Source of the DNA: Ruditapes philippinarum
Lineage: Eukaryota
Direction: 5' to 3'
Assembly: GCF_026571515.1 (NCBI RefSeq)
Contig: NW_026858509.1
Coordinates: 372,001-436,000, forward strand
Length of the DNA stretch: 64,000 nt
Part shown: in pieces, positions 33,790-61,483 of the stretch
Numbering within the stretch: position 1 is the first letter of the stretch
Layout: each line of letters starts with the position of its first letter
The notes under the pieces: model-generated
Seen by the model: the letters and a program-made list of their open reading frames with translations, nothing else
What the model was told of the DNA's origin: nothing
Databases searched by the model: none
Translations under genes and position numbers: made by a program

Positions 33790-33958
33790 ATGAATAACAA
33801 GCGTCTTGCCACCATTTTCACACTCCTGATCATACAGAGTCTTTTTGAACCAAGTGTCAGTCAGGGATACGGAAGGGGAAGGGGAAGAGGGCGTGGTCAC
33901 CACCATCATCATCATGACGACTACAGGGGCGGTGGCGGAGGTGTATTAGGAGGACTAG
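33790..33958 (+). CDS. Secreted Gly/Tyr-rich protein 1, coding exon 1 (signal peptide, RG repeats, His6)
   Basis: MNNKRLATIFTLLIIQSLFEPSVS|QGYGRGRGRGRGHHHHHHDDY; acceptor ttccag 21 nt before the ATG; donor CTAG|gtttgt. Confidence 0.85.
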
Positions 33959-34171
33959 GTTTGTTTAAATCTTTGTATTATTATAAAATTGCACTGATGC
34001 TAAAATGAGTTCAAGAATATCCATTTAAAAATAAAGAATGTTGTAGACTTAATAAATAAATGATAAACCTTTTTTACTTGAAGTAATCATTAACAACACA
34101 CATCAAAAGTGCTATACTTATAATTCAATACCAAACAAAAACTACGTATTGTTTATATAAAATACTTCCAG

Positions 34172-34515
34172 GAACTGTGCTAGGAATCGCTGGAGCAGGA
34201 TTACTTGCTGGTGCTGTTGCAAGGGGAGCTACTCGTGGATTTGGTGAGGGAGGTTATGCGCAACCGTACGTACAACCAGTGCTTCCGGTTGGTTATGGAG
34301 GAGGCGCATATGGAGGAGGCGCATATGGAGGAGGAGGCGCATATGGAGGAGGCGCATATGCGGATCCCTATCTTCCAGACCAATATGGATCTCAGTATGT
34401 TGGCGGATACTCGTCTCCTTTTGTAGGCGGTGCGGCATACGGTGGGGGATATCTTTCGCCACGTGGCAGTCGAGTGACTACTCTTTCGGACAGGCTTTAC
34501 TCCAATATATATTGA
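34172..34515 (+). CDS. Secreted Gly/Tyr-rich protein 1, coding exon 2 (170 aa total)
   Basis: acttccag|GA phase-1 join; GAGLLAGA, GGGAY repeats, ends YSNIY*; ATTAAA at ~34552. Confidence 0.85.
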
Positions 34516-35180
34516 ATGAATTTGAAATTTGTATGAGTACAATCATATTTAATTAAAGACAAATTCAAGATTGTTTTTCTCTTATTATCTATATACTCGT
34601 AAATACGTAATCAAAAAAATGTGCAATTACAAAACAAATATTTTTTGAACAATTTTGTGCGACGCTGAAAGGGTTAATTAGTTGTTACCATGTTTTTATA
34701 ACGAATCTTAACCAAATTTGTTAGATTTAAATCTATGCATTTGTTATATTGTTTGCTTGCAATTGATCATAAACGGGAGAGGTCAGTAGAGATTTTCAAT
34801 AAATATGGCCAACCGAAAGGTTTTGCTATTTTTGTTTATTTTCAAGCATTGCAATGTCATGTGATAAAGAAGTCTGACACTCGTCGTCATTTAATTCATA
34901 GAGACATGTATAGGCCTTTTTAACTCCGCCCAGAGACCACGTGATCATATATACCCGTGTACCATATAGCACAGTATACAACATATGTATAATATAATAG
35001 CTTATTGTTTACTTTTTATTACTTTCTCCATATATTGTGTTTTCGGTAAAACGTTGTAATCTGACACTACCCCTATCCCACACCGTCTCCAAGTGCCTGC
35101 TACTCGTACAACCTCAAAAGTTATAAATAAAAGTAATATTTCCAAATTTAAAATTCATAACAATTATAATATGGCGATAT

Positions 35181-35256
35181 TATGTAGTCTGATTTTATTG
35201 ACCTGTTAATTATTGCACTCATATGAATTGACAGGTTAATAAAATCCAACAATACT
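35181..35256. mobile_element. Minimal TIR-only derivative of the 6805-7520 element
   Basis: gattttattgacctgttaat-tattgcactcatatga-attgacaggttaataaaatc. Confidence 0.65.
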
Positions 35257-36469: not shown

Positions 36470-36735
36470 GCCACTTTTCATAGAATGGCACTTACGTGTC
36501 ATTTAAAGGTTCCATGATCAACGCTGTATGAACACACCTGTGGGAGTTGAAAATCAAAAAAAAAAAAAATCATTTCATGAATTTCATTTTTTTGAACTCT
36601 GCTAAAGCCGGTGCTGGGGGCATGGACGGTAGCTTGCATTTATCAGTACCGTCAATGAATAGGCTCAATCAAACTAAGTCTGCAACATTTTCTATTTTGG
36701 GCGTTCTTTAGGGATTCTTATTTTCTCTATTTATA
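36470..36735 (+). repeat. Dispersed repeat family (inverted copy ~38175-38420; partial copies 38772-38895 and ~47600-47670)
   Basis: Shared ctgctXaagccggtgcXXgggggcXtggacggta...caaac...tttagggattct motifs. Confidence 0.65.
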
Positions 36736-38893
36736 AGATATAATCCAAAACTATTCATACAGCTGATACTATGCCGATATACTTTTTTTATATATTTTCT
36801 TATGGTCCTCATCGAGGATTTTTGACATGATGAAACTGGAAAATTCTTTTCGAGATTAAGTTAACATTTGGTGTAGGTCTAGATCTATAACGCTAACTTG
36901 CTTTTTTTTCAGAATATTATTTTGATTTTGAAAAATGATCAAAAAAAGTGTTTAAACATTCTTAAAAGTACATTATGCCCAAGAAACAGATAAATTTGTC
37001 ACTCTTTAGAAAAGGCAAACATGAGTTTTAAAAATACTAAATAATAGCTTAAGAGCATGTTAGATGTGCATTATTGAAACAAAGTACATTAATTTGTCAA
37101 AAAGTAGCAAAATGTGAACAAATTAGTATTTTGACTTCTATACAAAATACTAAATCACTATATAACTGGACTAATGATAAAAATAGCGACAGAAGCAAAG
37201 GCCATTGAGTAATTTTATGGAAACTATAACATGACACCAGAATAAAATCCTTTTGAGAAATATGAGTAAAAAGAACATTTCTAGGGCGCAATGGACCGTT
37301 AACTTAAATCAGACTTAAAATACAACTTTCAAATTTTCAATTTAATGCTGAGTACATTTCTTTATTGTATTTTTAATATCTTTGCGTTTTGGGTGCCCCC
37401 CGATTAGCCATGTAAAGAATGAATTTTAATGTTTTTAGGCTTTTGGACCTCAGTGCAGTCCCTTATATCGTCTTATCTACAGACATAATCGATCAGTAAA
37501 ATAGAAACCAACATACGAAAAACATTTACTTTATCAACATTTATGTTTATCTAACATTATAAACCCCATGATTTTAGCAGTTATCCAACTTCCTCGTTGA
37601 AAAAAAAACAATTACAATACAAAATTCATAAATCAAAATCAGCCGAAGACCCACTACAGTGCTACATGGCCTGCTACAAAAATGAGCATATTATTTCAGT
37701 ATTATCGGAGAACAATAGTTCTCCTTTAATAACATTATCAACTTATTTATAATTGAGGTGTTCAGTTATCAATGCCAGTGTAAGAGTAACAAAATATGTT
37801 GAACTTAATGTCATCACAAGCGTGATGGTCAGGATATGTTAAACTCGTTCCCCATGCGGCCTTTGAAATGCTTTGCCATCTCCCTTACACTTGATTGTCT
37901 TTTACTGCGGGTTCACGGAAAAGGGCGATAAGATGGAGGTCATTCTATGTTATTTGTTTGTTATAAAAAGAAAAGAGAAATCAACGCTGTTGCCACTTAA
38001 TAGCTTATGTTAAGCTTAGATCTGTATAGAGGTTTTTCACATTACATGTCCCACTCCTTTCACCCTTATGTCCGCTTCTGGTTTTTTTGAGTGTGTCGGG
38101 GGCCGCGTCATGTGAACGTTGCCTTTGCCTTGTTGATCTTTATTCTTGTTTTTTTTTGCTACATTTGCTGAAATGAAAATCAAACGCAGAATCCCTAAGG
38201 AACGCCTAAAACGTCAAAATTGAAAATGTTACAGGTTAGATTGAGCCTGTACGTGGATGGTACTGGAACTTGCAAGTTACCGTTCATGCCCCTAGTACCT
38301 ACTTAAGCAGAACTCAACAACGGTACAATTTTGAATTCAGAAACATCCGCAGATGTGTTCATACGGCGGATATCACGGAACCTTCAATGTGAAACGTTTG
38401 TGCAATTCCATAAAAATAAGCTTTTTTTGTACATGTACCGAGTCTGCAATTTTCATGTAATTTTGTTGTGATTGATGTTTCCAGATATTTGAATGTTTTG
38501 AGATGCGCCATGTCATTCAATTATATATTGAAATAAATCTTGCTATATATAATGCAGAGAACTATTTTAAATCCTCTAAATTATCACGATCAGCAGGATT
38601 TTCTTGGTATTGACATTTTTAAAGGTGTTGAATTTTAATATTCATTGTAATAACGACTGCAGTGTTTCTTGCAAAAGAATAATGAAATTCTCGCTTTGGA
38701 GATGTCTTTAGAGCAATGAAAATAAAAACATACAGTGGAAAATAGCAGACTCGGTTTTGTGTTTATATGTTGAATTCTGCTTAAGCCGGTGCCAGGGGGC
38801 GTGGACGGTAACTCGCACTTTCCAGTAACGTCCATGAACAGGCTCGGTCAAACCGAGCCTACAACATTGTCATCGTTTAGGGATTCTGTTTTT

Positions 38894-40305
38894 CTCTATT
38901 TTACTGTGTTCATTAGTATTCTCTATTTTACTGTGTTCATTAGTATTCTCTATTTTACTGTTTTCATTAGTATTCTCTATTTTACTGTTTTCATTAGTAT
39001 TCTCTGTTTTACTGTGTTCATTAGTATTCTCTATTTTACTGTGTTCATTAGTATTCTCTGTTTTACTGTGTTCATAAGTATTCTCTGTTTTACTGTTTTC
39101 ATTAGTATTCTCTATTTTACTGTGTTCATTAGTATTCTCTATTTTACTGTGTTCATAAGTATTCTTTATTTTACTGTGTTCATTAGTATTCTCTATTTTA
39201 CTGTGTTCATTAGTATTCTCTATTTTATTGTTTTCATTAGTATTCTCTACTTTACTGTTTTCATTAGTATCCTCTGTTTTTACTGTGTTCATAAGTATTC
39301 TTTATTTTACTGTGTTCATAAGTATTCTCTATTTTACTGTGTTCATTAGTATTCTCTATTTTACTGTCTTCATAAGTATTCTCTATTTTACTGTGTTCAT
39401 AAGTATTCTCTATTTTATTGTTTTCATTAGTATTCTGTATTTTACTGTTTTCATTAGTATTCTCTATTTTTCTGTGTTCATTAGTATTCTCTATTTTACT
39501 GTGTTTATTAGTATTCTCTATTTTACTGTGTTCATAAGTATTCTTTAATTTTACTGTGTTCATTAGTATCCTCTGTTTTACTGTGTTCATAAGTATTCTC
39601 TATTTTACTGTGTTCATAAGTATTCTCTATTTTTACTGTGTTCATAAGTATTCTTTATGTTACTGTTTTCATTAGTATTCTCTATTTTACTGTGTTCATA
39701 AGTATTCTCTATTTTACTGTGTTCATTAGTATTCTCTATTTTACTGTGTTCATAAGTATTCTCTATTTTATTGTTTTCATTAGTATTCTCTATTTTACTG
39801 TTTTCATTAGTATCTCATAAGTATTCTCTATTTTACTGTGTTCATAAGTATCCTCTATTTTACTGTGTTCATAAGTATTCTCTATTTTACTGTATTCATA
39901 AGTATTCTCTATTTTACTGTTTTCATTAGTATTCTCTATTTTACTGTGTTCATTAGTATTCTCTATTTTACTGTGTTCATTAGTATTCTCTATTTTACTG
40001 TGTTCATAAGTATCCTCTGTTTTACTGTGTTCATAAGTATTCTCTATTTTACTGTGTTCATTAGTATCCTCTGTTTTGCTGTGTTCATAAGTATTCTTTA
40101 TTTTTACTGTGTTCATAAGTATTCTCTATTTTACTGTGTTCATTAGTATTCTCTATTTTACTGTGTTCATAAGTATTCTCTATTTTATTGTTTTCATTAG
40201 TATTCTCTACTTTACTGTTTTCATTAGCTTTCTCTATTTTACTGTGTTCATAAGTATTCTCTATTTTACAGTGTTCATTAGCTTTCTCTATGTTACTGTT
40301 TTCAT
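38894..40305. repeat. 27-bp minisatellite (~52 units), consensus ctctattttactgtgttcattagtatt
   Basis: Direct reading of tandem units; gives FTVFISILY and KIENTNEHS pseudo-ORFs on the two strands. Confidence 0.97.
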
Positions 40306-41885
40306 TAGAGATAATGTTAAATTCTACATCTCTCATGCCCTCTCTAGCACCGACTGAAGAAGTATTAAATCCTAACAACTTAAAAATATTGGAACCAATT
40401 GAAATTCATCTGTATGGATGTCAAACATTATTTACCATCATAGACATATGTTCAAACTTTCTTCCAGATGATAGCTAGATATATAGTATTTAGTTTTCAC
40501 GAAAGTAAACAAATTAAATTGTAAATTACGGCCTACTTAATTTAAATTGTTTAAAGATGGTGTACTTTTTTGTTGATGCTATTTTTTTTTTAAAGTAGGA
40601 TGCCAATGCTGCGGATTTCTTTGTAGCGCTTAAAAATATACTTTACTTAATCGGTTTTTAGGTTTGTTTGCTCGTTGGAAATCGCTCTATCAGAATGAGA
40701 AAACTTTAAAGATGTGTTTGATTAAAAAGATGAAAACACATTTTAAAAAATTCCTAGATGAGATGATTAATCTTAATGACAGATAGGACCTCTGGAAAAA
40801 TAGTTTTATTCTTTGATGACGAATGGCATATATAGATGAAAACATAAAATTTAAGAACAATAAGGGCTATCGGAAGGAAACACTTATCAAAGGTAGGTTG
40901 AATTATATTAATACTTTTAATCATATTGTTTATACGGTAGGAAATCTTTCGTTCAAGGAATGAAGTCATGATTTAGTTACTATGGCAACATGGTCCTCAA
41001 TCTGACTAAGGTTCAGAATCTTCTTGTGCTTAAGAGTGTTTTCAAATATTGTTGAAAACTATAGAAATGTATCATTGAATAAAGAATGTTGATTAAGTTA
41101 TAAGCCGTTTAGAATGACCATTTATCTGATAAATAAAAATATTTTGTTCAAAGAAACTTTATTACCTGCTATGTAAATATAATTATGTAATATCGGATCA
41201 TGTATCTCAGACTTACTAAGAACATCCAAGTATAATTCTTTTGTGGTTCAATTAAGTACCATCAACTTAATTATTCATTGTATTACAGATTTTCAATTAT
41301 ACTCGTAGATTTATTCATTTTAAAAGCTATCAATCTTACCTAGTGAATTATTCTTTGTACGATATTAATTAACTGAATTATACGGTGGAGGGCAATAAAT
41401 ACATTTCTGTCTAATTGGTTTTTTGGGTTGTTAATACATTTTGTGCAATAATATAAAATAATTAAAATCATGATATTCTTTTTTATGTTTGATAATTACT
41501 GAGAGAATCAAACAGATTTTTAAATTAATAAATGAGTTCAGCTAATCTCTACCTTTTTGTGTCCAATTTAAATCGACTACTTAATAGTTAACTGATCAAG
41601 TCAAAATGCTATCGTGCGTAAAATTATTGTGACACAAACATGAGTAATGGATTAATAGGCCATAAGTTACAGTCAATTGTATTTGCATTATTATCATGAC
41701 ATGACTAATTGTATTGATTAGAATGAGTTTTCATCAGGTTAGAAATATTCAAATGACTATCGTACATTCAACAATACAATGGAATACCCAATATTGTTAA
41801 CCAATAGAGTTAAACATCTTTCAAGAGTAATAAATCTTGTGCTTTTATTGTTTTATGTTTGTGTTTATTTCATATACAGATCACA

Positions 41886-42371
41886 ATGAATCAACAAAAG
41901 TTGGCACTGCTTCTAGGCACCATACTGTTGGTTGTCTTGATACCGGCTAGAGCTCAGTATAGTATCTCCTCATATACGAGTCACATGGGTGGTCATGGCG
42001 GAGGTCGGAGAGGAGGTTATGGTATGCCTTACACAGGTGGTCATGGCGGAGGTCATAGCGGTGGTTACGGTATGCCTTACACAGGTGGCCATGGCGGAGG
42101 TCGGAGAGGAGGTTATGGTATGCCCTACACTGGTGGCCATGGTGGAGGTCATAGTGGTGGTTATGGTATGCCCTACACAGGTGGTCATGGCGGAGGTAGT
42201 AGAGGAGGTTATGGTATGCCTTACACTGGTGGTCATGGCGGAGGTCATAGTGGTGGTTACGGTATGCCTTACACAGGTGGTCATGGCGGAGGTCATAGCG
42301 GTGGTTATGGTATGCCTTACACTGGTGGCCATGGTGGAGGTCATATATTTGGCAGGAGAGGAAGATATTAA
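41886..42371 (+). CDS. Secreted Gly/His/Tyr-rich repeat protein 2 (161 aa; 7x GGHGGGxxGGYGMPYT; ends RRGRY)
   Basis: catatacag|atcacaATG; signal peptide MNQQKLALLLGTILLVVLIPARA; 48-bp repeats vary mostly at synonymous positions; AATAAA at ~42598. Confidence 0.9.
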   Translation: MNQQKLALLLGTILLVVLIPARAQYSISSYTSHMGGHGGGRRGGYGMPYTGGHGGGHSGGYGMPYTGGHGGGRRGGYGMPYTGGHGGGHSGGYGMPYTGGHGGGSRGGYGMPYTGGHGGGHSGGYGMPYTGGHGGGHSGGYGMPYTGGHGGGHIFGRRGRY

Positions 42372-43127
42372 TACTTTAGCTCTCAATCATTTGACGGTGG
42401 ACCATTTAAACGTTGTAGAAAAAGTTTTGGAACTTTCAAAATAAGATTCGTTATCAATGTTAAACATCAAATAGGCATACCTCCTTTGTTATTATATCTT
42501 TTTTGCCTGAGATAAGTGAAATTTATTGTACATGTAAACAATTAAATGAAAATGCGATTTGTAAAATATTTTGTTATTTACGTTAATTTATCCTGAGAAT
42601 AAATACAAAAAAAAAATTGTCCGTCCGGAGCTTCAACGTATCTTGTATGATAATGATAATAATATTTTATTCAGAACTGTTTACCAGTGAAATATGGGCT
42701 ATATTATTAAGAATGACCTTATTATTTAGTTATTGCCTTAAATGGATAGCAAACTACATGCACTTGTCGAGTGATATGATTTCGTCGTGTGCATTCTCTA
42801 ATATATATGATTGAATGATAAGAAACTTGAAAGATGACAAATTGAATATTATGTAATATATCAACATAACCATGGACGTAGATTAAATAAACTACTGTTT
42901 TAAACAATGTTAATGTTATTGTAAAGCTGAACTATGAAATTAAAGAAAATAAAACAGTGATTTTTTAGTTTTTTTTGTTTTTTTTTGTTTTTTGTTGTTT
43001 TTTTTGTTTTTGTTTGTTTGTTTAGCTGAACCAAAATTATAACCACAAATGTGTATCACATATCAAGAATGCATTATAATACTGCATGTTTGTAACGTCG
43101 CTTTTTATTGGATAATCGTGGTGTTTA

Positions 43128-43635
43128 TATTATTAGTTATAAAGATTGTTGACAGGTTATATGGTCCTATATAAACAGCTGTTTGTAAATGTAAGGCGAG
43201 GGTTATATTGCAAACATCCGTTTATATACGGCCATATTTCCTGTCAACAATCTTTATAACGAATTTATAATACAGCACGCATCATTTTTAGAGAAAAAGT
43301 AAGATTTCTTAATGAATCGACAGTAGCCGTGTATATAAACGTCATGATAATCCAATGAAAAGCGACGTTACAAACGTGCAGTACTATAAAGTTTTGTATA
43401 CATGTCTTCTGTCGATTCTGAAAAATTCTTACCTTTTTTTCTCGTCGATTCTGAAAAAATCTTACCTTTTTTTCTCAAAAAAAAATAATGCTTGCTGTAT
43501 TATAAATTCGTTATTAAGATTGTTGACAGGTTATATGACCGTATATAAATGGCTGCTTGCAATATAACTCTCGCCTAGCGGCTCGGGTTATATTTACAAA
43601 TAGCCGTTTATATAGGGCCATATAACCTGTCAACA
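43128..43635. mobile_element. Foldback MITE with nested palindromic arms
   Basis: tattattagttataaagattgttgacaggttatatgg / ccatataacctgtcaacaatcttcataactaataata; each arm contains its own inverted copy of the motif. Confidence 0.8.
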
Positions 43636-45139
43636 ATCTTCATAACTAATAATATATGCTACATACTGACATCTATATCATCTCTTCTATGAAATATACA
43701 TTTATTTCACTAGTACTTCGATATTGAAAACAAGAGATATGCCTCACATATTGTATTTACAAAAACTAAACAAATACAATCAGTAAACAAAATCTAGTTA
43801 AAGTTTGGAAATTTCAAATGAATATAAAACGTTAGTAAGTCCTAGGTAATCGGTCTGGGATACTTAATTAAATACTAGTATATACATTTCATGTACATTG
43901 TTGTAGATTATATACGTACATGTACTGAGCAAACCGGTAACAAAGGGCGTTAAAGATATTGCACCTTTTAGCTCGCACGATCAGAAGCAATCATACAATG
44001 TATGTAATTTCACTATCCGTTTAGTTCTCATTCAGAAGGTATGTTAATAATTTTACGGAGAAACTATCCATTGCAGTAACTCACAACTTTGTGATATGGA
44101 TAAAAAGAGGGAGAAAAAAGATGCCCCACAAGGCTGTACATGAACCATGGTAAACGAAATCACTGTTCCTTGTCTTGCGAGCTGACACAATTCAATGCGT
44201 ACCCTGTTCTTTGATTGAAAACACATGATACTTCCGATCACTGTCGTTTTATTGGTATCCTATACATTTTAACTTTTACCTTTCTTGTGATAACTGGAAG
44301 TAGACTTGTTTAGTCAGTGTACCAGAGGTTTTTAAAAGATAAGACATTCAGAAGAAATAATTCGATTATATTTACTGAATGATTGAACACGTGAATATAT
44401 TGCAAAATGATTTTGCAATTTGGTTCAAACAATGTAATAACCAAATGTATTCAGCTCAGGGAAAAAAATGTTCCGTGGTTCATTTCTGTATTGTTTTATT
44501 ATGGTCCTTAAATTATAGAATCTAATACTTACAGTGTTTAGGATTGAATACTGCTTCAGACGGTCCTAGGGGGTGTAGGAGATTTACACCTTTTTAATAT
44601 CTTTCATAAACAGACTATATCTAACCGAGTACTAATCTACACCTTTATTCTTTTGTTTTAAGGTGTCTAGTATTTTAAGAATTTGAAATTAAGAAATCAA
44701 GACTGTAACTTTTGACGATAAATGTTACATCCTCACTAAATGTCTGACACACCCGAACCAAAGGCAACAAAACTTTCTCTAAAAATGACTGCAATTTAAG
44801 TATTGGTAAATATCTAATCGAGGATGAAAGGGTCTAAAAGCATTTTGATTTATTTTTTTCAATAATAGTTCAAATCATCAAAAATAATTCAGATTTGTAA
44901 GACTTACCGTTCAATTTCCTAAAAATGGAAATTGGAGTTTAACCATCATATGTTTTACCGGAAACCAAAATATCTTTCTAACCGATACACATTTCGGTGA
45001 GCCATATGAAGTTGGTCCCCGTCCTCAAATAAAATTTTGATCCCATCAATTATTTTTGAAAGAAATGGTTAAGGCGGTTTAATTTAAGATACGAGATTGA
45101 ATAAGTGAACAGGTGTGGACCTCAACATTTAGCCAACGT

Positions 45140-45446
45140 TGTGGTGTTGGTAGTTTTCACTCCAGGTCAGAACAGTTAGCCAATTCTAGTTTCACCAGAG
45201 CACAGTTAGCAACCACAGCGTTTACGGGCAGACTGTCAAGCAGTGTACCAGTACTATTATCATTTTCGCAAGGAACTAATAACCTCTGCTCATACCAGAG
45301 CAGAGCGTACAGCCGTAAAGGATTTTATGGACCAAAGAAAGGATTTCATGATCATTCACAATGACAGTGATCTGCACCGTTCGGGAATCAAAACCCTTGT
45401 CGCGATTCACGGCCCAACGCTCTACCTAGTGAGATAACCAGGCGGT
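45140..45446 (-). mobile_element. tRNA-derived SINE (family 2)
   Basis: Minus strand ACCGCCTGGTTATCTCACTAGGTAGAGCGTTGGGCCGTGAATC...GGTTTTGATTCCC, then a body matching 30485-30745. Confidence 0.7.
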
Positions 45447-45454
45447 TGTTTAAG

Positions 45455-47730: not shown

Positions 47731-47966
47731 TGAGCCGTGTCACGACAAAACCAACATAATGGGTTTGCGACCAGCATGGATCCAGACCAGCCTGCGCATC
47801 CGCGCAGTCTGATCAGGATCCATGCTGTTCACTATCAGTTTCTCTACTTGTAATAGGGTTTGTAAGCGAACAGCATGGATCCTGATCAACTGCGCGGATG
47901 CGCAGGCTGGTCTGGATCCATAAGGGTCGCAAACGCACTATGTTGGTTTTGTCGTGACACGGCTCA
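47731..47966. mobile_element. Palindromic MITE (well-preserved copy)
   Basis: tgagccgtgtcacgacaaaaccaacata ... tatgttggttttgtcgtgacacggctca; near-perfect ~100-bp arms. Confidence 0.9.
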
Positions 47967-48122
47967 AATGTGCAATTTAAGAATTTTTTAAGTTTGTGTA
48001 TTGTCACTAAGAATTCATTTCATGAATAGTTTAGTATATTTTATTTTGTCTTATTTATGTATTATGTGTACATATAACCTGTACATAGATGAGAATGCAA
48101 TTAAATAAAATAATAAGATAAT

Positions 48123-48712
48123 TGTTCTGCTTTGGTACTAGGAGAATTCTTGTACAACTAAAATACAAAAAGATTTATTTTCAAACTATTTTTTAACTAT
48201 TTCAATCCAGAGTCATGCAATCTATGGCTCTTCAGAGGAAAGGACTTTAGAACAAAAATTCCATAACAAAAATTTTAGCCCCAATAAATTTTACTGTAAC
48301 TCGTAACCCTTTTAAATTCCCTTTGGGTTTAATTTAAAACCAATAAATTTTTAAAATTTTGTGTAACAAAATTTTGGGGAAATCACCATAAAACAATGTT
48401 TAATGTTAATAAAAGTTTTAAAACTGAAACCTGAAAGTTCATGAAAAATTTCAGCTTTGGTTACTGATAGTGTTAAAATTTTTTTTGTAACTTTACTATC
48501 AAAAGGCCCTGAAATAGGTTTAAATTTTATCTTTAAAAACGATTACCGTAGTTTGGGTTTAAATTTAAATTTTTTCCTTTTTCTGTTTTGTTCTTTTTCC
48601 TTCGTTATAAACAAAATTCCCGACATTAAGGTACCTTAAAAAATAAAAGCAAAAAAAAAAATTTAAAAAATGAAATAAAAAAAATAAAATAAAAAATTTT
48701 TAATGCATAATA
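48123..48712 (-). repeat. 3' LTR
   Basis: 48123-48270 is nearly identical to 57978-58140; the remainder matches with homopolymer distortions; adjacent PPT. Confidence 0.9.
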
Positions 48713-49149
48713 CCACCCCCTCCTCTAAATTTTCTTTATTCCTATAAAAGAGTAAAGGGGTAATATATCCAAACTGTATTATTTTTAAACACATCAAGCA
48801 TTCTATGTATTTTAAGTAAAAAATGCATTAAGCATTATATCAGTATTTTTCTAAATAAAGTACAAAAACAGAAGCATATATTTTACAACAATACCAAATA
48901 AATGCATTTTTTTTTAACTGTCATTAAATACCAATTTATATTCTCATGCATATTTGCATATAAGTATCTCAACAGTTTTTGTTTGTTTTTTTTTTGTTTT
49001 TTTTTTTTTATAAAAAGAAAACATATACATATGTACAAAAATCAATATACATCATTGCAAAACATAAAAATATATGACATCAATTTTGATTTATTTCTTT
49101 TCATCTTGTCAAAGTTTGTTCTTAATTGAAAGATAATTCATGAAATAAA

Positions 49150-51550
49150 AATTAAATTATTCACAAAATATTTTCTAAAAAATTTAAAAATTTATTTGCC
49201 CTTAAAAGGTGGTGAAAATTAATACAATTTATTTTTAAAGAAGGGGAAAAAAAAACATGTATTCCAAGTTTGTAAAGGCATAAACAATTGTCAGGGTTGA
49301 AAAAAAAATAGGGACAAAAAGGGGGTAGACATTATAGGGCCCTTAAATTTTTTGGAAAAAAAAATTTTTCCCTGTAATTTGTTTCTATCTGTAAGGGTTT
49401 TGTTTGATAGCTTATTCTTTTTTTAAAATTCCCACCCAGTCAAATGTCCCAATTGGGGGTCCCCCATATTTCTGATGTTTTTTGGTAATGTTTTTGGGTG
49501 CCTTTTTTTGGGGCCAGAAAGGTAGGACAAAAAAGTTAGATTTTTAAGTGGAAAATTTGTACAGAATTTTTTCCCTTTAGGGGATTTAAACCCACTTTTT
49601 TTGGAAATTTTTTCTAAAAACCTTACATGTTTTTTACCCATTAAAAAAAACAAGAAGAATTATGTTTAAATGACAATTAAGGGGGATATAAATTCCGGGG
49701 CTAAATTTAAAAATTTTAAGTTTTCCCCAAAAGAAACATGTCTTTGTTGTAGCTTTTTTGAAAAAGTTAAAAACCCTAATAGGGAACTTTGGGAAGCTCA
49801 AAACCTGTTTGGTACAAGTGATTTGGGTAAGTGGGTACAAAAAATTTAAATTTACTTTTCTAAGCAAAACTTTGGTGTAAATTATAAAAAGCTTTCAGAA
49901 AAAAAGGTGAAACGGGTTTGCTGTGATATTTTAAAATAATGTCATTAGTTGAAATAATTTTAAACCCACCCAAAGTTTATTTCCTGACGTAAAAAATCTG
50001 TGGAGATTGAAAAATAAGTAAAATTTGTCTTTTGGGCTGTTTGTGCCTTTTTTTTGTAATTTAAGATGACTTTGCTGTCTTGCTTATTTTTTTAAATAGT
50101 ATGTTTTGGGAAAATTTAAAAAATTTTGGAAAAACTTTTAAATACCCCAGGGGGTTTTTCAAAAAATTTGAATTATATCAAATTTTTCAAAGAATATAAA
50201 AAAAAAAATTTGTTGAGCAATGAAAGTTTACAGGATGAAAATTTTTGCTGAATTTATTTTCATAGCAGTCGGGTCAATCTTGCAGGAAAAAAATGTAGGG
50301 GATTTTGTAAAACCCTGAAAAATCACATGGAAACATTAAATTATCAAAATTTGCAAAACCTTTATCCATTTTTTTTTCCCATTTTTTACAATCATTTTCC
50401 CAAAGGCCCCAAAACATTAAAAAACTAATTTTTGAATTTTTAAAGATGCAGAAAAAAAAAACCCAAATTAAAAAAAATATATTCAAAAATCAAAAAATTA
50501 AAATTTTTTCTTTGTTTAAAAAATTTTGCCCTTTTTTTTAAACAAGGAAAATTCAAAAGATTTCTTAATAGGCAGGCATTAAATTTTTTAAAAAATTCAA
50601 AATGCCCCTTTTATTAAATTGCTTTTTTTGAATTCCCAAAATTTCCCAAAATTTTGTGAAATATTGAAAAGATAAATTAAGTAATAGCAATATGTTTAGG
50701 TAAATCTAGTATTTGTGTTGCAATTTGAAGTTTTCATTTCGGGGAAAACGGGAAAATAAAGTTATTTAAAATTCATAAAGGGTTTAAAAAAATTGGTGAA
50801 AGGGAAAATTTTTTACAGAAACATATAGAGAAAGAATTTTTTTCTAGCAAAAAAATGTCCTAGCAAAAGGGGGTAGTAAGGTGCTGGGTCTGTATATATT
50901 AGTAAAATCCTATGAACTTTTTTTCAAAAATTTTCCCGGAATATAAATTCAGGGGTCTTGACATTGTTTCAAAGTTAATTAAGTGAGGAGATACCTTAAA
51001 AAATTAAAATTAAAGCTTTAAATAAAAATCCAAAAGTTCATTGAAAAGGGTTTTTCCCAAGCTGTCTAGATTTTGAAATTTTTGCTTAAAAATGAATCCC
51101 ATTAAATTTTTTGAAATGATTTCTTTAAATTAAAAAATTGTTTTTCAAACATTGAGTTTGAATATTTTTCAATACCCAAAATGATTTTTTTTCCAACCTT
51201 TAAAAATTTTTAAATTTCTCTTTCTTAGTATTTTCCATGTAAAAAATAAAATAAATCTTCATGTGTTTCAAACAAAATTAATCAGTTTGTTTTGATATTT
51301 TTTTTAATGAATTGATATGTCTAGTTTAGCATCTTTTACATTTTTTAACTTTTGCTGTGAAAAATATTGATCTTGGGACTTCCAATTTAAAAGGAAAAAA
51401 TTGGCACGTTTTATTTTCCCTACTTTTAATTGAAATTTTTTTTCAGGCAAAAATTTAAATTAAAAATTTACTTTAAAAATTCCCCCAAAACTGTTTTTTT
51501 TTTGTTTCTTTTAAAACCAAAAATATAAACAAATTAGCTTTTTTTGGTAA
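49150..51550 (-). pseudogene. Garbled env-like ORF (F-type fusion-protein-like; inference)
   Basis: Readable islands VSPHLINFETMSR (50994-50956), HRILLIYTDPAPYY (50914-50873), ATQILDLPKHIAIT (50721-50680), HPVN (~50237); located between integrase and the PPT. Confidence 0.5.
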
Positions 51551-52399
51551 TATAATTTAAAAATTAAATAAATTTCCATACTCTTCCTGCCCCTGAAAAG
51601 TTATCCACGGGTTAAAATTAAAAACCCCATTTTTTAAAAACCCGTTGAAAAGTCAGGGCCCTTCTTTCCAGACACCGATGGACTACAAAGTATCATTCCA
51701 AAGGTCGCATCGGGAAAATTTTGGAAGCAACTAGAATAAAAGGAAATGAAAAAAAATCAACAAAAAGGGAAAAAAAAGTGTTTCAGTTTTTTTTCTGCCT
51801 AGCCTTTGAACAAAAATATTTGAAGAAAAAAGAGAAAAAAAAAGAAGACCATTCTTTAATGAACACATTCAGTTCACCCCAAAATTTAAAAAATACAGTC
51901 ATATTTCCAGTTCAAAAGATAGTGCCCCTAATCACCCGTGCACAAAATTTTTGCCATTTTAAATAATAGGGAAACCTGAATAATTTCAAGAAAAAATTTT
52001 AAAATACCATGTGCCAAGTACAAAAAGGCCCAACAACCTGAAAAACTTGAAAATATATAGGGTTCTAAAAAAACATAAAACTAAATGGGGTTTAAACCCT
52101 AAGAAATTGAAACTTAGGGTTTTGAAATTTTATTTTTCTTTTTTTTTTCCTTTCCCAAATTTTTGAAATCGAACAAAAAAAAAGTTTCAGTTCTTTACTA
52201 ACATTTCATATTTTTCCCAAAAGTAGGCTTAAAACTTTTTGGTTGCTCCATTCAATAAGTATTTTTATCCCTTTTTCTTTTTCCCTTAGTTTAAAAATTC
52301 TTTTTTGTTTTGGGGTCCCCAAAAACCCCCAAATCATTATTGTTTGAAGTTTTGGTTTTAGGAGTTTTTTCCCCTTTGAAACATTTAAATTTTTTTAAA

Positions 52400-55370
52400 T
52401 TTTGGTAAACTTACCTGATTTTCTTGGGGTTTTGTGTTTTGGTCATCTTGATTATTTTCAATGTCATTTGTTTTTGTTACATTCCCCTTGATCCGGGTTT
52501 TTTTAAACCCTGATCTTTTATGGTCGGGTAGAACTGGTTTTGTTATAAAATTATTTTCCCTTCCATCAACTTAAAACCTAAAGTTGTCTGGATCATGTCC
52601 CTTTTTAAGTTTTTTTTGCATTTATTTGGGTGCTCTTAAATTTTGTTGTGTATTACTTTCTGAAATTCTGTATTTTATCTGGGGGAAAATTTTTGCCCTT
52701 TATGAAATAAGGACCTTTCTTTATACTCTATTTTTAGTTTGTAAGACCGGGTTTAATGTTTTTTAAATTTTCCCAAATAATATTTTGCTCAAAAAAAGTC
52801 TAAAATCAGAGGGTTGAGTTTTTTAAAATCTTCCCTTTAATTAAAATTCTTGCTGATTTTTTTTCAGTGTTTTTTTTTGCAATTTTATGTATTTTTTTCA
52901 GCCCTTTGAAAAAAGATTGTATATGTTTTTTAAATTTCCCCGGTTCCAAAATGGTTTCTCTATGTTTTAGTTTTTAACATCCATAGGGAGTTCTTTTCCC
53001 CTCAAAAATCTTTTTAAAATTTTTGGGGCAAAACCCTAAAGTTTCAATTTTGGTGAAAACCAAAGGGGGTTTTGAAATTTACTATTGGAAAAAAACATTT
53101 TTCCCAGTTCTTTTTGATTTTAAAAATATACAAAAGTAATGTTTGGAAAATTTGGGGTGGCATTTTGCCTTTAACAAAAAATCCTTTTTCCCTTTGGATT
53201 GAAAATTTAAGCTGTGCGGGGGTCTTTGTTGAAAAAATTGGGTTTAAAAATTTTTCCCACAAAAAACCGGGGATTAAAAAATTTTTAAAAAAGTTTTTTT
53301 GGAGAGGAATTTGTCCTCTAATTGGGTTTACAAAAAAAAAAGGGAACCCAGCTGGTTTTCCCCAAATAAACACAAAAAAAATCATTTTATTTTTTTTAAA
53401 ACCCCTTGCCTTTTTTTTTTTTGAAAAAACAAAAGGAATTTGGTTTTAGTTAATTTTTGGGCGGAAATCCTTTTTTTTTTCCCCGTATTTTGGGAAAAAC
53501 TATCCACAAAATTTTAATAAAATCCATCCATTGTTTTTCCCATATTTCATTTTTTAAGGTTTTAAAAATTGTCAAAAAATTTTTATTATTAAAAAATTGG
53601 GGGAAGCGATCTACCTTATGTGTATTGGTTTTCTTTTTTGCCTTTGTCTTTTGATTTCACAAAAACCCCGGGAAATTTCCCGGGGTTTTTTCAAATTTTT
53701 TGCCAAAAAATTTTTTTTTAAAATTTTTAATTTTTAAAGAAAGGAAGGGTTTTTTGACAAAAACAAATTTTTTTGAACATTTGTTTTAATGGGAAATTTT
53801 TTTTTCGGGGATGGAACCTTCACCAATTTTTAATTTTTTTGGAAGTGAAAAATTGAAAAATAACCCTTATTTTTTCCCTTTTGGGTTTAGGTTTTTTTTC
53901 TCTTTGACCCTTTTTGTTGAAAAGGGAATTTTTAAAAAATTTTAAATCCAAAAAAATTTTAAAAACTTTCTTTTTAACTTGTTTTTCTAAAATTAAAACC
54001 CTAATTTAAAAGGGGTTAATTTTTTTCCACCAAAATTTTCAAATTTGGGGTTTTTTTTTTAATAAAAAATTTTCCGGCAGTTTTTTTTTTTGGTTTTTAA
54101 TTTTTAAACTTTTTGGGGGTCATTAAAAAAATCAAATTTTTTATTTTTTTTTCCTTTTTTCAATTTTAAATCTTTTCCCCGGTAAAATCCAAAAAATTTT
54201 TTTGGGAAAAATTTGTTTTGGGGGAAAAAAAAATTTACGGGCCCGGGGAAATTTAAAATTAAAATTTTTTATAAAAATTTTTTTCTTATTCCTTTTCATT
54301 TTTGCTGGGTTTTAAGGGAAAAATTTGCGGATCCCAACCAAATGGGGTTCCTTTTAGAAAAACCCTTTAAAAACTGTTTTTTTCCCGCAAATAAAAAGTT
54401 GAAAAATGTATTTTAAAATTTGTTTGAAATTCCTAAAATTTGGGGAAAAAATTTAAAAAGATAAAACCTTTGGAAGGGGCATTTTAAATAAAAAATCCCC
54501 CTTTTTTCGGGTGTGAAAACTTTGTCCCCTTTTTAAATACCTTTTAAAAATTATTGCCCATTTTTCAAAAAGCAAAAAATTCAAAAAACCAAAAAATTTT
54601 TGGGGAAAAGTTTTGGTTTTTTAAAAAAAGTTTAAAAAATTAACTTTTATTCCTTGAGATTTTTGGTTTATTTTAAAAATTTAGAGCGGTTGCCCAAAGT
54701 TAAGCTTTAAATTTGGCCTTTAACCAAACAGCCTATGGGGGCCTTAAACATTTCTTTTTCCCTTAAAAAAATTATTTTGGGTTATTTTTTTTAAAAACCA
54801 CCCCAAAAAAGAATGAATTTCGGGGGGGTTTTAACGGGTAAAAATTTTTAAAAAAGTTTTGGGTTTCAATTTAAAAAAATAATTATTTTAAAAAAATAAA
54901 AAAATAATTGCTTGCCGTATTTCCTTTTTTTAAAATAATTTTGGAAAAATTTTATTTGTTTTTTAAAAAGGTTTTTCAAATTCTTTTTTTTAAAAATTTA
55001 AAAATTAAAAAATTCTTTGGTTTAAAATTTTCTTCAAAAATTTTAAAATTTTTTTTAAATCAAAATTAAAAAATTTTGTTTTTTTTAAAAATTACCCTGA
55101 TTTACATTTAACTTCCCTTGAGGTTAAAATAAAAAAAATTTATATAAATTGGCCCAATTTAAAATTGGCCTTTTGCAAGGAAAAATGCGGACTTAAACCG
55201 TCAAAATTTTTAAGGGGTCTGTGCCAAAACCCCTCTTTACTTTTTCTTTTTTTTTAAATAATGAAATTTTTTCTGTGAAAAAGAAAACTTTTAAACCTGG
55301 AGACATTTTTCAGCCCAGTTTGTCTTAATCGCAAAACCCACTTCTTTTAAAATTTACTGAGATTTTTTCT
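52400..55370 (-). pseudogene. Garbled RT C-terminus / RNase H / integrase region
   Basis: Continues from RT; GPYFI motif (GGTCCTTATTTCATA) at 52715-52701; HPQ-like remnant ~53160; frame destroyed by homopolymer indels. Confidence 0.6.
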
Positions 55371-56947
55371 TTAAATTTTGGGGCTAAAGAAAATGATAAC
55401 ATCATCTACATAACAGAGAACAAATTTCCATGAGATACCACTAAGAACTTTCATTAAAAGCGACTGAAAAGTAGCTGGAGCCCCTGACAATCCAAATGGC
55501 ATTTTTCTAAAAGAAAATATTCCTTCGGCACAAATGAATGAAGCTTTCTCCCTACTGTCTTGCTCTAAAGGTACTTGCCAAAATGCTTTACCAAGGTCAA
55601 GAGATGAAAAAAACTGTGAATTTGATTCCCCAATTGCATCAAAGATATCTGACAGGCGTGGTAAGGGATATGCCTGAGGTTTGCTTATCTTATTTAATTT
55701 CCTATAGTCAACTGCAAAACCTATACTCATCAGAACCTGCTTTTTTAACAAGTACAAACTGGTGAATGTCAATTTGAAGAACTTGCATCAATAATTTTGT
55801 TTTCTAACATTTTTTGTACCCAAACCCTTGTTGCTTCTCTTACCACAGGATTTTGTTTATAAGCTGGTAGTTTTACCGGCATTGCATCTCCTGTTTCAAT
55901 CTTGTGAGTTTGTAAATGTGTGCAACCTAAATCATGTAGTCCTTCTGAGAAAATGTCTCTATTTTTGTTTAAAAGATCTAATAACTGTTTTTTCTGGTAA
56001 TCATTTAAATCAGAATCTTTAAGATTGAAATCTAATGTACTACTAGGTTTTGAATTTGTTTTTATGTCTGAAATGCCTAAACTTTGTTCATTTTCAAATG
56101 AATGTTTGTCAACATCACCAATTGAAAATACTGATTTTTTTTCTACTTCTGAAACTGTTGCCAAAATTTTATTTGATTTCAAATAGACAATTTTATTAGT
56201 AGGATTAACTACTCTTAAAGCAGCTTTTCCATTTTCTACATGAACTAGGCATTTAGCACCTAAAATATGTTTATGAGTTAATGACACTAAAGGTTCTAAC
56301 AAAACATTTGAACCAGTTTTCACTCTTGATATTTTCACAGGAATATCAACTTCGGCCTGAGGGAGTATCTTAGTAGATCTTACAGTTCTAGCATAACCTG
56401 TATTTGTGCTAAGAGAACACACTTTCAAAAAGTCATGAATAATAAATTTTTTCGAGGCAATGTCCAAAGAAACCTTGTGTTTTTCCATAAAATCTATGCC
56501 CAAAATCACAGAATGATGTAAATCTTTGATAACATAAAATTTTGAAGCCAAGGTAACAGTCCCAAAACTTATATCTAAATTTACTTCCCCACTAACAGCA
56601 TGATGTGTTCCACCAACCCCTACTATTGTTTTAATTTTTGACTCGCTTATCTTGGGCTTCTTATCAAAGAAAGCTTTGTTAAAAAAGGACTCACTTAAAC
56701 ATGAAATTGATGCCCCTGTATCACATAAAGCACTAGTTTTTGTGTTATTGATACTAACAGAGACTGTGTTTCTAGTCATTATAGTTGAAAATTTTGGATC
56801 AATATATGACACATTAGCACTATCAGACTTTCTTTCATAAAATCTTGTTTGTTTTCCCTTAGTTTTAGCACTGTTTAAGTTGTTATCAATTTGTTTGTAA
56901 ACTATACTGTTATGCCTATCTACTGGCTGTGACCTGCAGACAGGCAC
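55371..56947 (-). CDS. pol: Gypsy pol: aspartic protease and reverse transcriptase (frameshifted)
   Basis: ALCDTGASIS, VILGIDFM, HKIETGDAMPV, VDYRKLN, YPLPRL, SSLDL..FWQVPL, MPFGLSGAPATFQ, YVDD. Confidence 0.93.
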
Positions 56948-56949
56948 GC

Positions 56950-57900
56950 ACCCCTATTGTGTATTATTTGACTGGTTCCAAGACTTTTTGTTAAAAGAAC
57001 TATTATTGTTATGCCCGAATTTTGAACTTTTACATTTATTGCCGAAATGGTTCAGTTTATTACATTATTTATAGCATGTTTTTGCCCATTGCTCTACAAG
57101 AATTAGCAGAATAGCACCTACCTCCACAACGATGACATGACGGAACAGCCTGTTGTTGTTTATTCTTATAGTGTCTGTCTCCATTGTTTCCTTCACGGTT
57201 CTTTTCTGTTGTCAACCTTGTTACAGCTGCTACCAACTGCTCAACTGTCTGTTCGAGTTTAGAAGTTTCTGTCACATTAATCTGGGCACGATCACCTATG
57301 TTTCCATGGATATCCCCCATCCTGGCAGCCAAATTTCGAACTTCTTGTAATGTTTTCGGAGCGTGCGCCCCCATTGCCTGGCCAACCATCCCTTCCATAC
57401 CTTTAAGTGCGATTTGAACTTGTACATTTTCAGGAATGTTGTTGATGTATGTAGCTTGTTCAAGCCTATTTAAAAACTGGTTCAAAGTCTCACCAGGTGA
57501 CTGTTTCATAGTGTAAATATCTAGACTTGCTTCTTTTTCAATTTTGAAATTTTGCGACCAACATATCTTTCAGTTCATTTATTCTTTCTGGTCTTATGTT
57601 TTGCGATTCATACCATAATCTTGCCAAGCCTTTCAAATGCCAGGCAAGTGATGCGACAGCCTGTTCATCTTTAAGAGCCGTTGCTCTAACGTATTCATCG
57701 AATCGTCTCAGATAACGGACAATATCCTGTGTCCCATCCCCGTAAAAATCCTCCATCCTAAATGCACCTGCCATTGGAAAAAAACCAGGTTCACGTGTTG
57801 TTGATGTTGGCAAACCAAGGTCTTGTGGCTGTTCTGGCTCAGTAGGCGGAGTTTGTACACTTCTCAAACTATAATTTGACGGTCTAGACGAAAGTGGCAT
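56950..57900 (-). CDS. gag: Gypsy gag (capsid plus zinc knuckle), frameshifted
   Basis: FYGDGTQD..YLRRFDEY..HLKGLARLWY; KQSPGETLNQF; CHRCG..C; after a frameshift, CYKCNKLNHFGNKC (CCHC). Confidence 0.88.
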
Positions 57901-57977
57901 TTGTTACTCGCTTGCTGATTTTACTGGTTACTCGCTTGCTAATTTGAGAGGTCGGAATCATCCACTACCCCACCAAG

Positions 57978-58567
57978 TGTTCTGCTTTGGTACTAGGGGA
58001 ATTCTTGTACAACTAAAATACAAAAAGATGTCCTTTTTCCTCAATTTATTTTCAAACTATTTTTTAACTATTTCAATCCAGAGTCATGCAATCTATGGCT
58101 CTTCAGAGGAAAGGACTTTAGAACAACAACTTCCATAACAATAATAGACCAATCAATTTTACTGTACATCATGTGACCCTTAATTCCCTTAGGTAATTTA
58201 ACCAATCAATTTTAATTTCGTGTAACGAAATTTGGAATCATCCAATGAAACAATGTTTACATGTTAATAAAGTATTAACTGAAACCCTGTAAGTTTTCAT
58301 GGACAAATCAGCTTATGGGGTTACTGATAGTGTTAAAATTTCTTTTGTAACATTTACTATCGGAAAAGGTCTGAAATAGGATTAATTATCTTGTTAAAGC
58401 GATTACCGTAGATTGGTTAACTTAGATCTTCCTATCTGTATTTGTTCTTATGCCTTCTGTTATAACATATTACCGACATTAAAGCGTACCTTAAGAAATA
58501 AAAGCAAAATAAAAATTAAATAAAAATGAATAATAAAAAATAAAATCAAAACTTTTAATGCATAATA
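57978..58567 (-). repeat. 5' LTR (590 bp)
   Basis: Starts TATTATGC, ends GCAGAACA; followed by CT-TGGTGGGGTAGTGG PBS. Confidence 0.9.
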
Positions 58568-59814
58568 TAATAATCAAATATGCATTAAACATATTCGTCA
58601 AATGATTGGTGTTCATTTCGTACAGGATCGACTGTTTGAATTACCCTGGTTTAATTTTTTTTTTAAACTAATATTAAGCAAATCTTTATTTTTCATTTTT
58701 TTTTTTTTTTTTTTGGTAATCTGTTACATTTTACAAGAAAATCATTTGCAATGTACCTTAGCCACCTTTGCTTCTTTTGCGTGTATTGGCAATAAGTGCA
58801 GTTACTGGGATTTAGTGTTTTGTATTAAAATTAAAATACCACTTTATTCATATTTTACTACCTTTATCACAAATTATTTAACGTTCAAAATTACGTTTTT
58901 TTCCCAACTGATATGCATCTCAGATATAACAACATTATGAATATATGTTTCTACAGAAGGGAAAATATACATGCCTACATTTCTAACGCTTAATGTGCTA
59001 CATGTAATAGTTTTGTGATTTTTATACTGCAAGTGCCTTTTAAGCAGCATGTATTTTTATGAAGTATGTATTAAATGAGCAACATTGTCATATAATGTTG
59101 CAATCGCAACATTTCAACAGTTTCCGTCAAACTTCGGATAAGGATGATTAATGGAAGTCGGCAAATTGTTCCGAATATATGGCGTTACGTATTATCACTG
59201 TTTGTCGTTGTTTGTTAATATTAAACTGCACAAAAAAGTTTAAAAAAGCATTTAGATAACAACTCTATAAAACCGTCATTAATGAATAGGCAGTGATGGG
59301 CAAAATGTACTTAGTCCTAAACAGAGTTCACTTAAATATCTAATGACTTGCAAATTCACTATGGTGAATTCTTAAAACAGTTTTGTAACTAAGGTTTCTC
59401 TTTTGTGAAGGGAATATTCATAAATCATTTCCCCCCAAAAAAGAAGCTTCCAAGACAAAAAGACGCTTTTAAATTGTTTTGTTTGATCAATCTGCAGACG
59501 ATGCATATAAACCTTGCAAGAAAGTTTATTTTTATAAATAGGTTTACATCAAACGGAAGCAAAAAGCATTCACGACCAAAAACCTAAAATAATAAAAAAA
59601 AAACAAAAAAAACACTGTGTCTTTAAGCGTATTTGCGTACGTGAGCGGTAGTGTAAACATATGGCCAAACATTTTGAAATTATAAGTCAGTAATTAAAAC
59701 AGTCATACAGGTGGTTACTGTCATTATTTACAAACGAGACTAATTGAAAGACATCAATTAGTTGCATGAAGAATAACTCATGTGCAAACGACTTTGATCA
59801 CTTTACGATTATCA

Positions 59815-59902
59815 ATCAATAAAAGGGAGAAATTTTGTTAAATATGTAGCAATCACTTTGCTTAAGCCACAAATTTACAACGATTTCTAAGACGAAACTA
59901 AG
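59815..59902 (+). promoter_or_regulatory. Putative core promoter and non-coding first exon of Gly-rich gene 3
   Basis: TATA-like aataaaaggg ~59818, Inr-like atcact ~59852, strong donor AAG|gtgagt at 59902. Confidence 0.5.
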
Positions 59903-60923
59903 GTGAGTTTTATTGTATACATATTTTACACGTTTTCTTTATTCTGTAAGGGTATTTGAGAATTTTCTTACATCAAAGCTTCGGTTTGTATGTGATGTCA
60001 CGGCTTGAATCAAATCCTTATTTCTTTTAACATTTAGCTTTAGTTCTTTATATTTTAAGAAGAATGGAATTGCTTTCAAATCATGTGAAACGCCTATAGA
60101 GGACCTGGGACGGAAGATAACTTCTGTCCCAGAAAGGACATAAACCGCTTAATGTTTGAATTCATTTTTTATAATCTAGCTTAAATATAGTTTTTAATTG
60201 TATATATTATGCAATGTATATTTTATATGTTTATATGTCTTATATACAGCAAAATTACACAAACCGCAACCGATTTTTCGTGTGATTTTTTCGTGTGAAA
60301 TTTCCCGCATATGACCTTTTTCTATCATATATATTTCACTTATATATATTTTATATATACATATGTATACATGTATTATACAGCATTAACGAAGTAAGTC
60401 TGTTAAGTATGTACGTGCAATTGCAATAAAAATATTCTAAGCATTTTATTGCGAGACAAATAATATAAAATCTTCATAATCAATCGATGACATGTGTACA
60501 AGGGCAATGTCATCTACACTTCCCAGATTGGGTTAAAAGAATAAAATAAAGCAAAGAATGAACAAGAAAATTTCTATCGTAAATTGACTTTGTAGTTCTA
60601 TCTGTTATGATTTGTGCAAGACTAACTACTTGTACTACGCGATGAAATTTATTGTAATATTCTGTGTATTGGCAATATCTCCCCTTTGGGTAGAAGCGAC
60701 ATTCTGACCCTGCAGAACAAAATATTTGGCACTTTAATAGATTTGACTATGATTTTTGCTATCAACAATCTTAAATGAGATTGTAATTTTAGGTAAGTAT
60801 TTTAGATAGTTCATATATAAATGAATTTAAAATACATACATATAATTTATAAATCTAAATGAAACGGAACGGAACAAACCATTTAATCTTTAATTTATAT
60901 TAATTTATCTCTTTCAGAACAAC

Positions 60924-61483
60924 ATGGGTGTCAAGACAGCATTTGTTCTTGTTGCCACAATCTTATTGGTTATTACCATACAATGCGATGCTCAATACCG
61001 TGGTAGGCGTGGACGTCATCATCATCATCACCACGGTGGTGGGCGTGGATATTACTCTGGTGGGTTTGGAGGGCCTTTCATTGGTGGATTTGGAAGAGGT
61101 CTTGGAGGCGGTATTGGCATAGGATTACTCGCAGGAGCTTTTGGTGGAGGCGGTTTCGGTTCCCCATTCGGATATGGATATCCAATCGGAGGATTTGGTT
61201 TCGGTGGTTTGGGAGGTTTCGGATATCCTGGATTCGGATTATACTGTAAGTATTAGTAATGATTTTTTCTTTAAAATGGAGAAGAAACATTTTTTCACAT
61301 TTTTCTAATTTAAAAATTATATGCATTTCGCTCTCAAACACTGTTTCGACTTAACCGATTGTGCAATACTGCATTGGTCCTAGTACTCAGAACCATTGTA
61401 TTTGCTTAATTAATACTGTCATGTTTTTTCTATTTCTCATATTTGTTTGCTCAATTTTTCAATATCTCAAATTTATTTCAGAA
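60924..61483 (+). CDS. Secreted Gly/Phe/Tyr-rich protein 3 (107 aa; CDS 60924-61245 + 61482-61483, stop codon split by an intron)
   Basis: ctttcag|aacaacATG; MGVKTAFVLVATILLVITIQCDA|QYRGRRGRHHHHHH..GLLAGAF..GFGLY; T|gtaagt...tttcag|AA gives TAA; AATAAA at ~61694. Confidence 0.87.

Follow-up and report, generated by a model that had tools for sequence, protein, structure and literature searches.

The proteins of mollusc shell skins and shell matrices evolve fast and are known mostly from pearl oysters, mussels and snails. Shematrins, which belong to the prismatic shell matrix of Pinctada and were reported to be lacking even in the Pacific oyster genome (PMC3896809, PMC4759782, PMC3191542), are defined by GnY (n = 2,3) repeats and a C-terminal signature (RKKKY, RRKKY, RRRKY, IRRKK or PRKKY; PMC3896809), and a Gly/Tyr-rich tandem cluster of this kind is known in pearl oysters (PMC4759782). 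KRMPs carry, after the signal peptide, a Lys/Trp-rich basic region with six Cys, and also have a Gly/Tyr region for which quinone tanning is assumed (PMC3191542, PMC3896809). Abductin, ~116 residues long and 58% Gly, ends in a Tyr proposed to take part in dityrosine cross-linking (PMC9999432). The NLPs and caenacins, reported only from nematodes, are basic peptides with a high content of Gly and aromatic residues (PMC6780910); in C. elegans their genes are Gly/Tyr-rich and clustered, those of the nlp-29 group in a cluster that infection induces (PMC2453101). Here we analyse a 64,000-nucleotide (nt) stretch of the Manila clam Ruditapes philippinarum (contig NW_026858509.1, positions 372,001 to 436,000; hereafter the window), in which three + strand genes, A, B and C, encode short predicted secreted proteins rich in Gly, Tyr and His. 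An earlier note had proposed these genes, and their ends were confirmed from the sequence (Table 1).

We favour, with a little better than even confidence, the reading that the trio is a lineage-restricted tandem family of largely disordered structural proteins of a hardened organic secretion, shematrin-like in its working. The secretion would most likely be the periostracum or the insoluble shell matrix, laid down from the mantle edge.

That A, B and C are real secreted Gly/Tyr/His-rich bivalve genes is supported by several features. All three reading frames are intact. The N termini are hydrophobic (best 10-residue Kyte-Doolittle mean 2.8 in A, 3.2 in B and 3.4 in C), with small residues at -3/-1, Gln at +1 and a likely cleavage after residue 24, 23 and 23, respectively, in agreement with the 23-24-residue signal peptides and mature N-terminal Gln of the earlier note. 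These signal peptides were judged by hydropathy and the -3/-1 rule rather than by a dedicated predictor, and that of gene A is the least regular. A filter for an ATG, a hydrophobic stretch and a Gly-rich follow-on, with thresholds chosen when the genes were already known, was passed on both strands of the window by exactly the A, B and C starts, and 20 of 20 Markov-shuffled windows contained no start that passed. Among the six full 48-nt units of gene B, 8 of 10 variable columns fall at the third codon position (binomial P 0.003), and pairwise codon differences between units are synonymous in 50 cases and non-synonymous in 17; this concentration of variation at third positions supports gene B as real coding sequence. 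The splice acceptors proposed 6-21 nt before each ATG are present (CAG at 21 nt in A, and at 6 nt in both B and C), but are weak evidence alone because 897 of the window's 2517 ATGs have a YAG at that distance. Poly(A)-type signals lie within 400 nt past the stop in all three genes, and such words are frequent in AT-rich DNA. The chance of three genes lying on one strand is 0.25. The predicted introns of A and C run GT..CAG, are 73-77% AT and have stops in all frames, and putative upstream non-coding exons near the cluster genes could be proposed from sequence alone. If left unspliced at 61245-61483, gene C would encode 110 residues, with three extra residues (one of them Cys) and the Tyr end kept, so that intron retention is a possible source of an alternative protein end.

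The mature chains are rich in Gly (31.5% in A, 45.7% in B and 44.0% in C), Tyr (11.6%, 12.3% and 8.3%), His (4.1%, 10.1% and 7.1%) and Arg (6.8%, 5.8% and 7.1%). All three lack Cys, Lys and Trp, have isoelectric points (pI) of 9.3-10.4 and end in Tyr, and the Cys-free Gly/aromatic body with a C-terminal Tyr described earlier therefore stands for each. Met occurs in B only (5.8%), Phe reaches 11.9% in C, and Pro is about 5%. Arg-Gly and His motifs, claimed earlier for all three, are as described in A and C, which share an Arg-Gly run followed by a His6 head and a GxGLLAGA word. Both are missing from B, which carries 13 scattered GGH in place of a poly-His tract. In A and C the GxGLLAGA word sits in a 19-residue hydrophobic Gly-zipper-like segment in which small residues recur at intervals of four (A residues 55-73, mean 1.79, reached by 1 of 2000 shuffles; C residues 60-78, mean 1.35, reached by 43 of 2000), and the same hydropathy scan found no such segment in B. 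Gene B is built of 7.5 copies of a 16-residue Gly/His/Tyr/Met/Pro unit and contains Gly-Arg-Arg three times (residues 41, 73 and 157). The motif G[YF]xxP[YF], picked post hoc, occurs twice in A, seven times in B and twice in C, against 0.04-0.07 copies expected. This motif and the final Tyr uphold part of the shared blueprint of the earlier note, although the trio really divides into an A/C type and a B type.

Single-sequence AlphaFold prediction gave gene C a low-confidence helix in the region of its hydrophobic segment, at mature residues 33-51 (mean predicted local distance difference test score (pLDDT) 54.2) and gene B no structure (pLDDT 45.6), results that fit disorder in both. In a protein atlas that contains B letter for letter, a presence that says nothing of expression, the structure matches of B were beta-solenoid clusters under the bar (best feature match 0.85). 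A beta-solenoid for B was dropped because AlphaFold returned no such fold. A homodimer prediction for C residues 44-90 gave no answer (score 0.00).

In the structural reading, removal of the signal peptide would expose a Gln that cyclises to pyroglutamate, and the Gly-rich chain would stay flexible. Chains would condense through Arg, Tyr and Phe, with His lending pH or metal dependence, and in A and C the hydrophobic Gly-zipper-like segment would drive packing and water loss. A tyrosinase or peroxidase would then oxidise Tyr to form cross-links; because the chains contain neither Lys nor Cys, their make-up predicts Tyr-Tyr or quinone-His links. The DOPA cross-linking and His-metal binding put forward in the earlier note are likewise proposals from composition.

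The three genes are probably paralogues. In full-length local alignments every pair scored above all 1000 plain shuffles, and shuffles that keep local composition (block shuffles) reached the real score 0 times for B-C, once for A-B and 47 times for A-C in 1000. For the signal peptides alone the corresponding counts were 1 (B-C), 12 (A-B) and 42 (A-C) of 1000. A common origin is favoured by the shared G[YF]xxP[YF] motif, by the B-C signal similarity and by the Arg-Gly/His6 head and GxGLLAGA word of A and C. No fourth paralogue turned up in the window by tblastn or by a composition scan, nor any relic of one, and intergenic stop-free stretches of at least 70 codons look like repeats or noise.

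Several observations weigh against a structural tandem family. Composition cannot tell structural from antimicrobial Gly/Tyr-rich proteins, the NLPs and caenacins of C. elegans being a case in point. The GnY repeat, counted three times in A and seven times in B, is not present in C, and the shematrin/KRMP C-terminal signature was found in none of the three (0/3), B alone resembling it in its basic residues and Tyr. A scan of long open reading frames (ORFs) in the window (11 proteins) revealed no recognisable tanning enzyme. Low AlphaFold confidence is common for any orphan protein run as a single sequence. Paralogy is left unproven, since the A-C score is within reach of block shuffles, intron positions differ among the cluster genes and no DNA similarity was found between the three loci and their flanks (best local scores 28-30). 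No shared promoter sequence emerged from that comparison either, and the probable co-regulation suggested in the earlier note gained no support. Loci without DNA similarity and with differing introns imply that any duplication was old or the divergence fast. The same two features, and the tendency of low-complexity proteins to align by composition, would also suit a trio that is not one functional unit, either unrelated Gly-rich neighbours or a set in which at least one gene is silent or wrongly modelled. Exact B and C are, moreover, missing from a collection of 15 billion proteins in which the RefSeq protein of a neighbouring gene is present. We hold this account to be improbable: frames are intact, signal peptides and poly(A) signals are in place, B shows a synonymous bias, and the three are the sole filter-passing starts in 64 kb, with shared motifs and B-C signal similarity.

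Among named families, shematrins are, like the clam trio, secreted, Gly/Tyr-rich, repetitive, tandemly clustered and lineage-restricted, and a signal peptide followed by a Gly-rich repetitive body was found here by hydropathy and the -3/-1 rule. The trio differs in being His-rich and from a venerid host, and A and C in having their basic patch at the N terminus together with a hydrophobic Gly-zipper-like segment. The KRMPs of Pinctada, like A and C, are small secreted proteins that place a basic region ahead of a Gly/Tyr region. The latter is present in the trio; the Lys/Trp-rich six-Cys region is not (no K, W or C in any of the three), and an RKYKY-type end is absent. The mantle 'glycine-rich' proteins of Cepaea and Lymnaea and PM241 of the Pinctada periostracal groove, compared by description, also have a signal peptide, a Gly/Tyr-dominated chain and no known domain, and the trio departs from them in containing less Gly (31-46%) and adding His and Arg. 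Squid-beak His-rich proteins (DgHBP) are again short Gly-rich disordered chains with His/Tyr and a terminal Tyr. Of the at least two GHGLY copies looked for (PMC9999432), no gene had one (GHGLY and GHGxY both 0/3), and with the shematrin C-terminal motif also missing, neither shematrins nor squid-beak proteins, the comparators of the earlier note, held up as families for these genes.

Scallop abductin, likewise a short Gly-rich disordered chain with Phe/Met and a terminal Tyr, raises the prospect that the trio serves another secretion, such as juvenile byssus or foot mucus, the hinge ligament, or an egg or gamete coat. We rate this as rather unlikely. The Gly/Met repeats of B, and the Gly/Phe repeats and terminal Tyr of C, do recall abductin, and mussel threads are known for His-metal and 3,4-dihydroxyphenylalanine (DOPA) chemistry (PMC9999432); the abductin repeat GGFGGMGGGX was nevertheless found in none of the three (0/3), Pro is about 5% as against ~1% in abductin, and Lys is absent.

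A basic, Gly/aromatic-rich set of secreted peptides encoded in a cluster, the pattern of the nematode NLPs and caenacins, is also what the trio presents, although the YGGYG/YGGWG motif of those peptides occurs in none of the three (0/3) and the trio adds poly-His and a hydrophobic segment (A and C). The genes could accordingly encode epithelial or mucosal antimicrobial peptides, convergent with the nematode clusters or with arthropod Gly-rich peptides, which we think unlikely, if still a serious contender; biomaterial or defence, as the earlier note put it, are the two best readings. The Arg/His head of A and C would bind microbes and the Gly-zipper segment would insert, while B would be cut at Gly-Arg-Arg to release amidated Gly/His/Tyr peptides. 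Small size, cationic charge, absence of Cys, Gly/aromatic composition, clustering and the hydrophobic segment all suit such a role, as do the three Gly-Arg-Arg sites of B, which we take to be convertase/amidation signals. Precedents lie in the NLPs and caenacins (PMC6780910), in the infection-induced nlp-29 cluster (PMC2453101) and, in the part of the literature covered, in Gly-rich antibacterial peptides of snail mucus. On the other hand, besides the missing motif, charged residues sit in short patches of chains that are otherwise largely neutral Gly/Tyr, the B repeats are conserved as protein and have not diversified, and structural shematrins also end in Arg pairs (PMC3896809). A novel defence family can be imagined by analogy, at similarly low probability, in which A and C would be pyroglutamate-capped peptides whose action on microbial membranes depends on pH or metal, and B a polyprotein, all possibly doubling as blocks of a tanned periostracum. 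Brown ring disease has its onset at the periostracum.

Judged by their sequences, the three proteins are not members of the shematrins, KRMPs, abductins, squid-beak proteins or NLPs/caenacins. The missing signatures make membership less likely and do not lower the case for working alike.

Searches for relatives returned none for B or C. Among candidates of 0.55-1.75 times the query length, 0 of 2192 were confirmed for gene C at E<=0.001 and 0 of 7999 for gene B at E<=0.01. Against 1.84 billion representatives gene C had one match, covering the His tract only, to an unrelated-looking 312-residue protein. Exact look-up in the 15 billion proteins gave 0 of 4, B and C being absent there; metagenome contigs gave pattern matches of which none was confirmed (C 0/594, B 0/52); and no usable protein atlas match was found for gene C. 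Pfam returned a family for none of the 4 cluster pieces, gene A having been searched only as two exons and in Pfam only. Of 81 weak matches among PDB sequences, the His tract is paired, in those listed, with stretches at the N terminus that resemble His tags. Low-complexity bias correction weakens all homologue searches for proteins of this kind. It is plausible that the cluster is lineage-specific, and the earlier description of real secreted, probably paralogous Gly/Tyr/His-rich genes stands. No description of the trio was found in the portions of the literature covered, and the Manila clam shell proteome of Marie 2011 or the supplements of papers could contain them. The words 'glycine' and 'shematrin' do not occur in the main text of papers on Manila clam development and Mercenaria calcifying fluid (PMC9524096, PMC9781830), and in sections of an antimicrobial-peptide review (PMC11767717) Gly-rich peptides are treated for crustaceans, and the references on Ruditapes deal with defensins and ubiquitin.

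Table 1. Features of the cluster and of the element between genes B and C (window coordinates).
Feature	Position	Strand	Description
Gene A	33790-33958 + 34172-34515	+	170 residues, two coding exons
Gene A exon 1	33790..33958	+	Signal peptide 1-24, Gln25, Arg-Gly run, His6, start of hydrophobic segment
Gene A intron	33959..34171	+	213 nt, phase 1, GT..CAG, 77% AT, all frames stopped; predicted from GT..AG and frame
Gene A exon 2	34172..34515	+	Remainder of hydrophobic Gly-zipper-like segment, GGGAY repeats, Tyr/Pro/Gly body, final Tyr
Gene A signals	CAG acceptor ending 33768; ATTAAA 34552	+	Sequence
Gene B	41886..42371	+	161 residues, single coding exon
Gene B modules		+	Signal peptide 1-23, Gln24, 7.5x 48-nt/16-residue repeat, basic end with final Tyr
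Gene B signals	CAG acceptor ending 41879; ATTAAA 42541, AATAAA 42598	+	Sequence
Gene C	60924-61245 + 61482-61483	+	107 residues, predicted stop codon split by intron
Gene C main exon	60924..61245	+	Signal peptide 1-23, Gln24, Arg-Gly run, His6, Gly/Phe/Tyr/Pro body, Tyr107, first base of stop
Gene C intron	61246..61481	+	236 nt, GTAAGT..CAG; predicted from GT..AG and frame
Gene C stop remainder	61482..61483	+	Last two stop bases, then 3' untranslated region
Gene C signals	CAG acceptor ending 60917; ATTAAA 61611, AATAAA 61694	+	Sequence
Long terminal repeat (LTR) retrotransposon remnant, Ty3/gypsy-type	48120..58567	-	Between B and C, not part of cluster

The distance from gene A to gene B is 7.4 kb and from B to C 18.6 kb, of which the LTR remnant accounts for 10.4 kb, leaving ~8.1 kb. 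Its LTRs (48120-48712 and 57975-58567) are 80.6% identical, and protease and reverse transcriptase ORFs lie at 55371-56779. Homopolymer bases number 218-320 per 2 kb in 48-56 kb as against 20-92 elsewhere in 30-64 kb; this excess suggests poor base calls, so that the LTR identity is unsafe as an age estimate. Also between B and the LTR element, a pair of 420-nt inverted repeats, 77% identical (45454-46599), and a smaller mixed direct/inverted repeat (43112-43650) are probably remnants of old DNA transposons. At 38892-40308, a 27-nt unit is repeated ~52 times in two arrays (34 and 18 copies), which have open frames on both strands and adjoin a short dispersed repeat that recurs at 36590-36730 and 38190-38320; this is probably a satellite in a non-autonomous element and not a gene. 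Tandem arrays of 132-166-nt units lie at 1-769, 1712-2439, 23599-24726, 25909-26367, 27154-27520 and 28881-29334, and we take these units to resemble core repeats of bivalve Helentron/MITE-type (miniature inverted-repeat transposable element) elements. Open frames of 1401 and 428 residues on the + strand (16077-20282 and 21762-23048), acidic/Lys-rich and of no Pfam family, probably belong to a single uncharacterised gene as large exons. On the - strand, 4415-5479 holds a 354-residue exon with a leucine-rich-repeat-like look, 74% identical in Mercenaria mercenaria and 53% in Mactra; the ORF is 99% identical to a JGI protein, with XP_060599917.1 (Ruditapes philippinarum) as cluster-mate, and the gene could anchor synteny comparisons of the cluster. 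On the evidence of this one gene, the window comes from the Manila clam or a very close venerid.

Secreted Gly/Tyr-rich proteins encoded in tandem are a well-known feature of molluscs, and genes of this kind are expected rather than surprising. The trio would be an unnamed family within this familiar class, whose function we infer, and it adds three short candidate proteins from a major farmed clam. Were they defence peptides, they would constitute a Gly/Tyr-rich antimicrobial family in the clam, relevant to aquaculture disease. The module order of A and C, an Arg-Gly/His6 head, a hydrophobic Gly-zipper-like core and a Tyr/Pro/Gly tail, is absent from the named families compared here.

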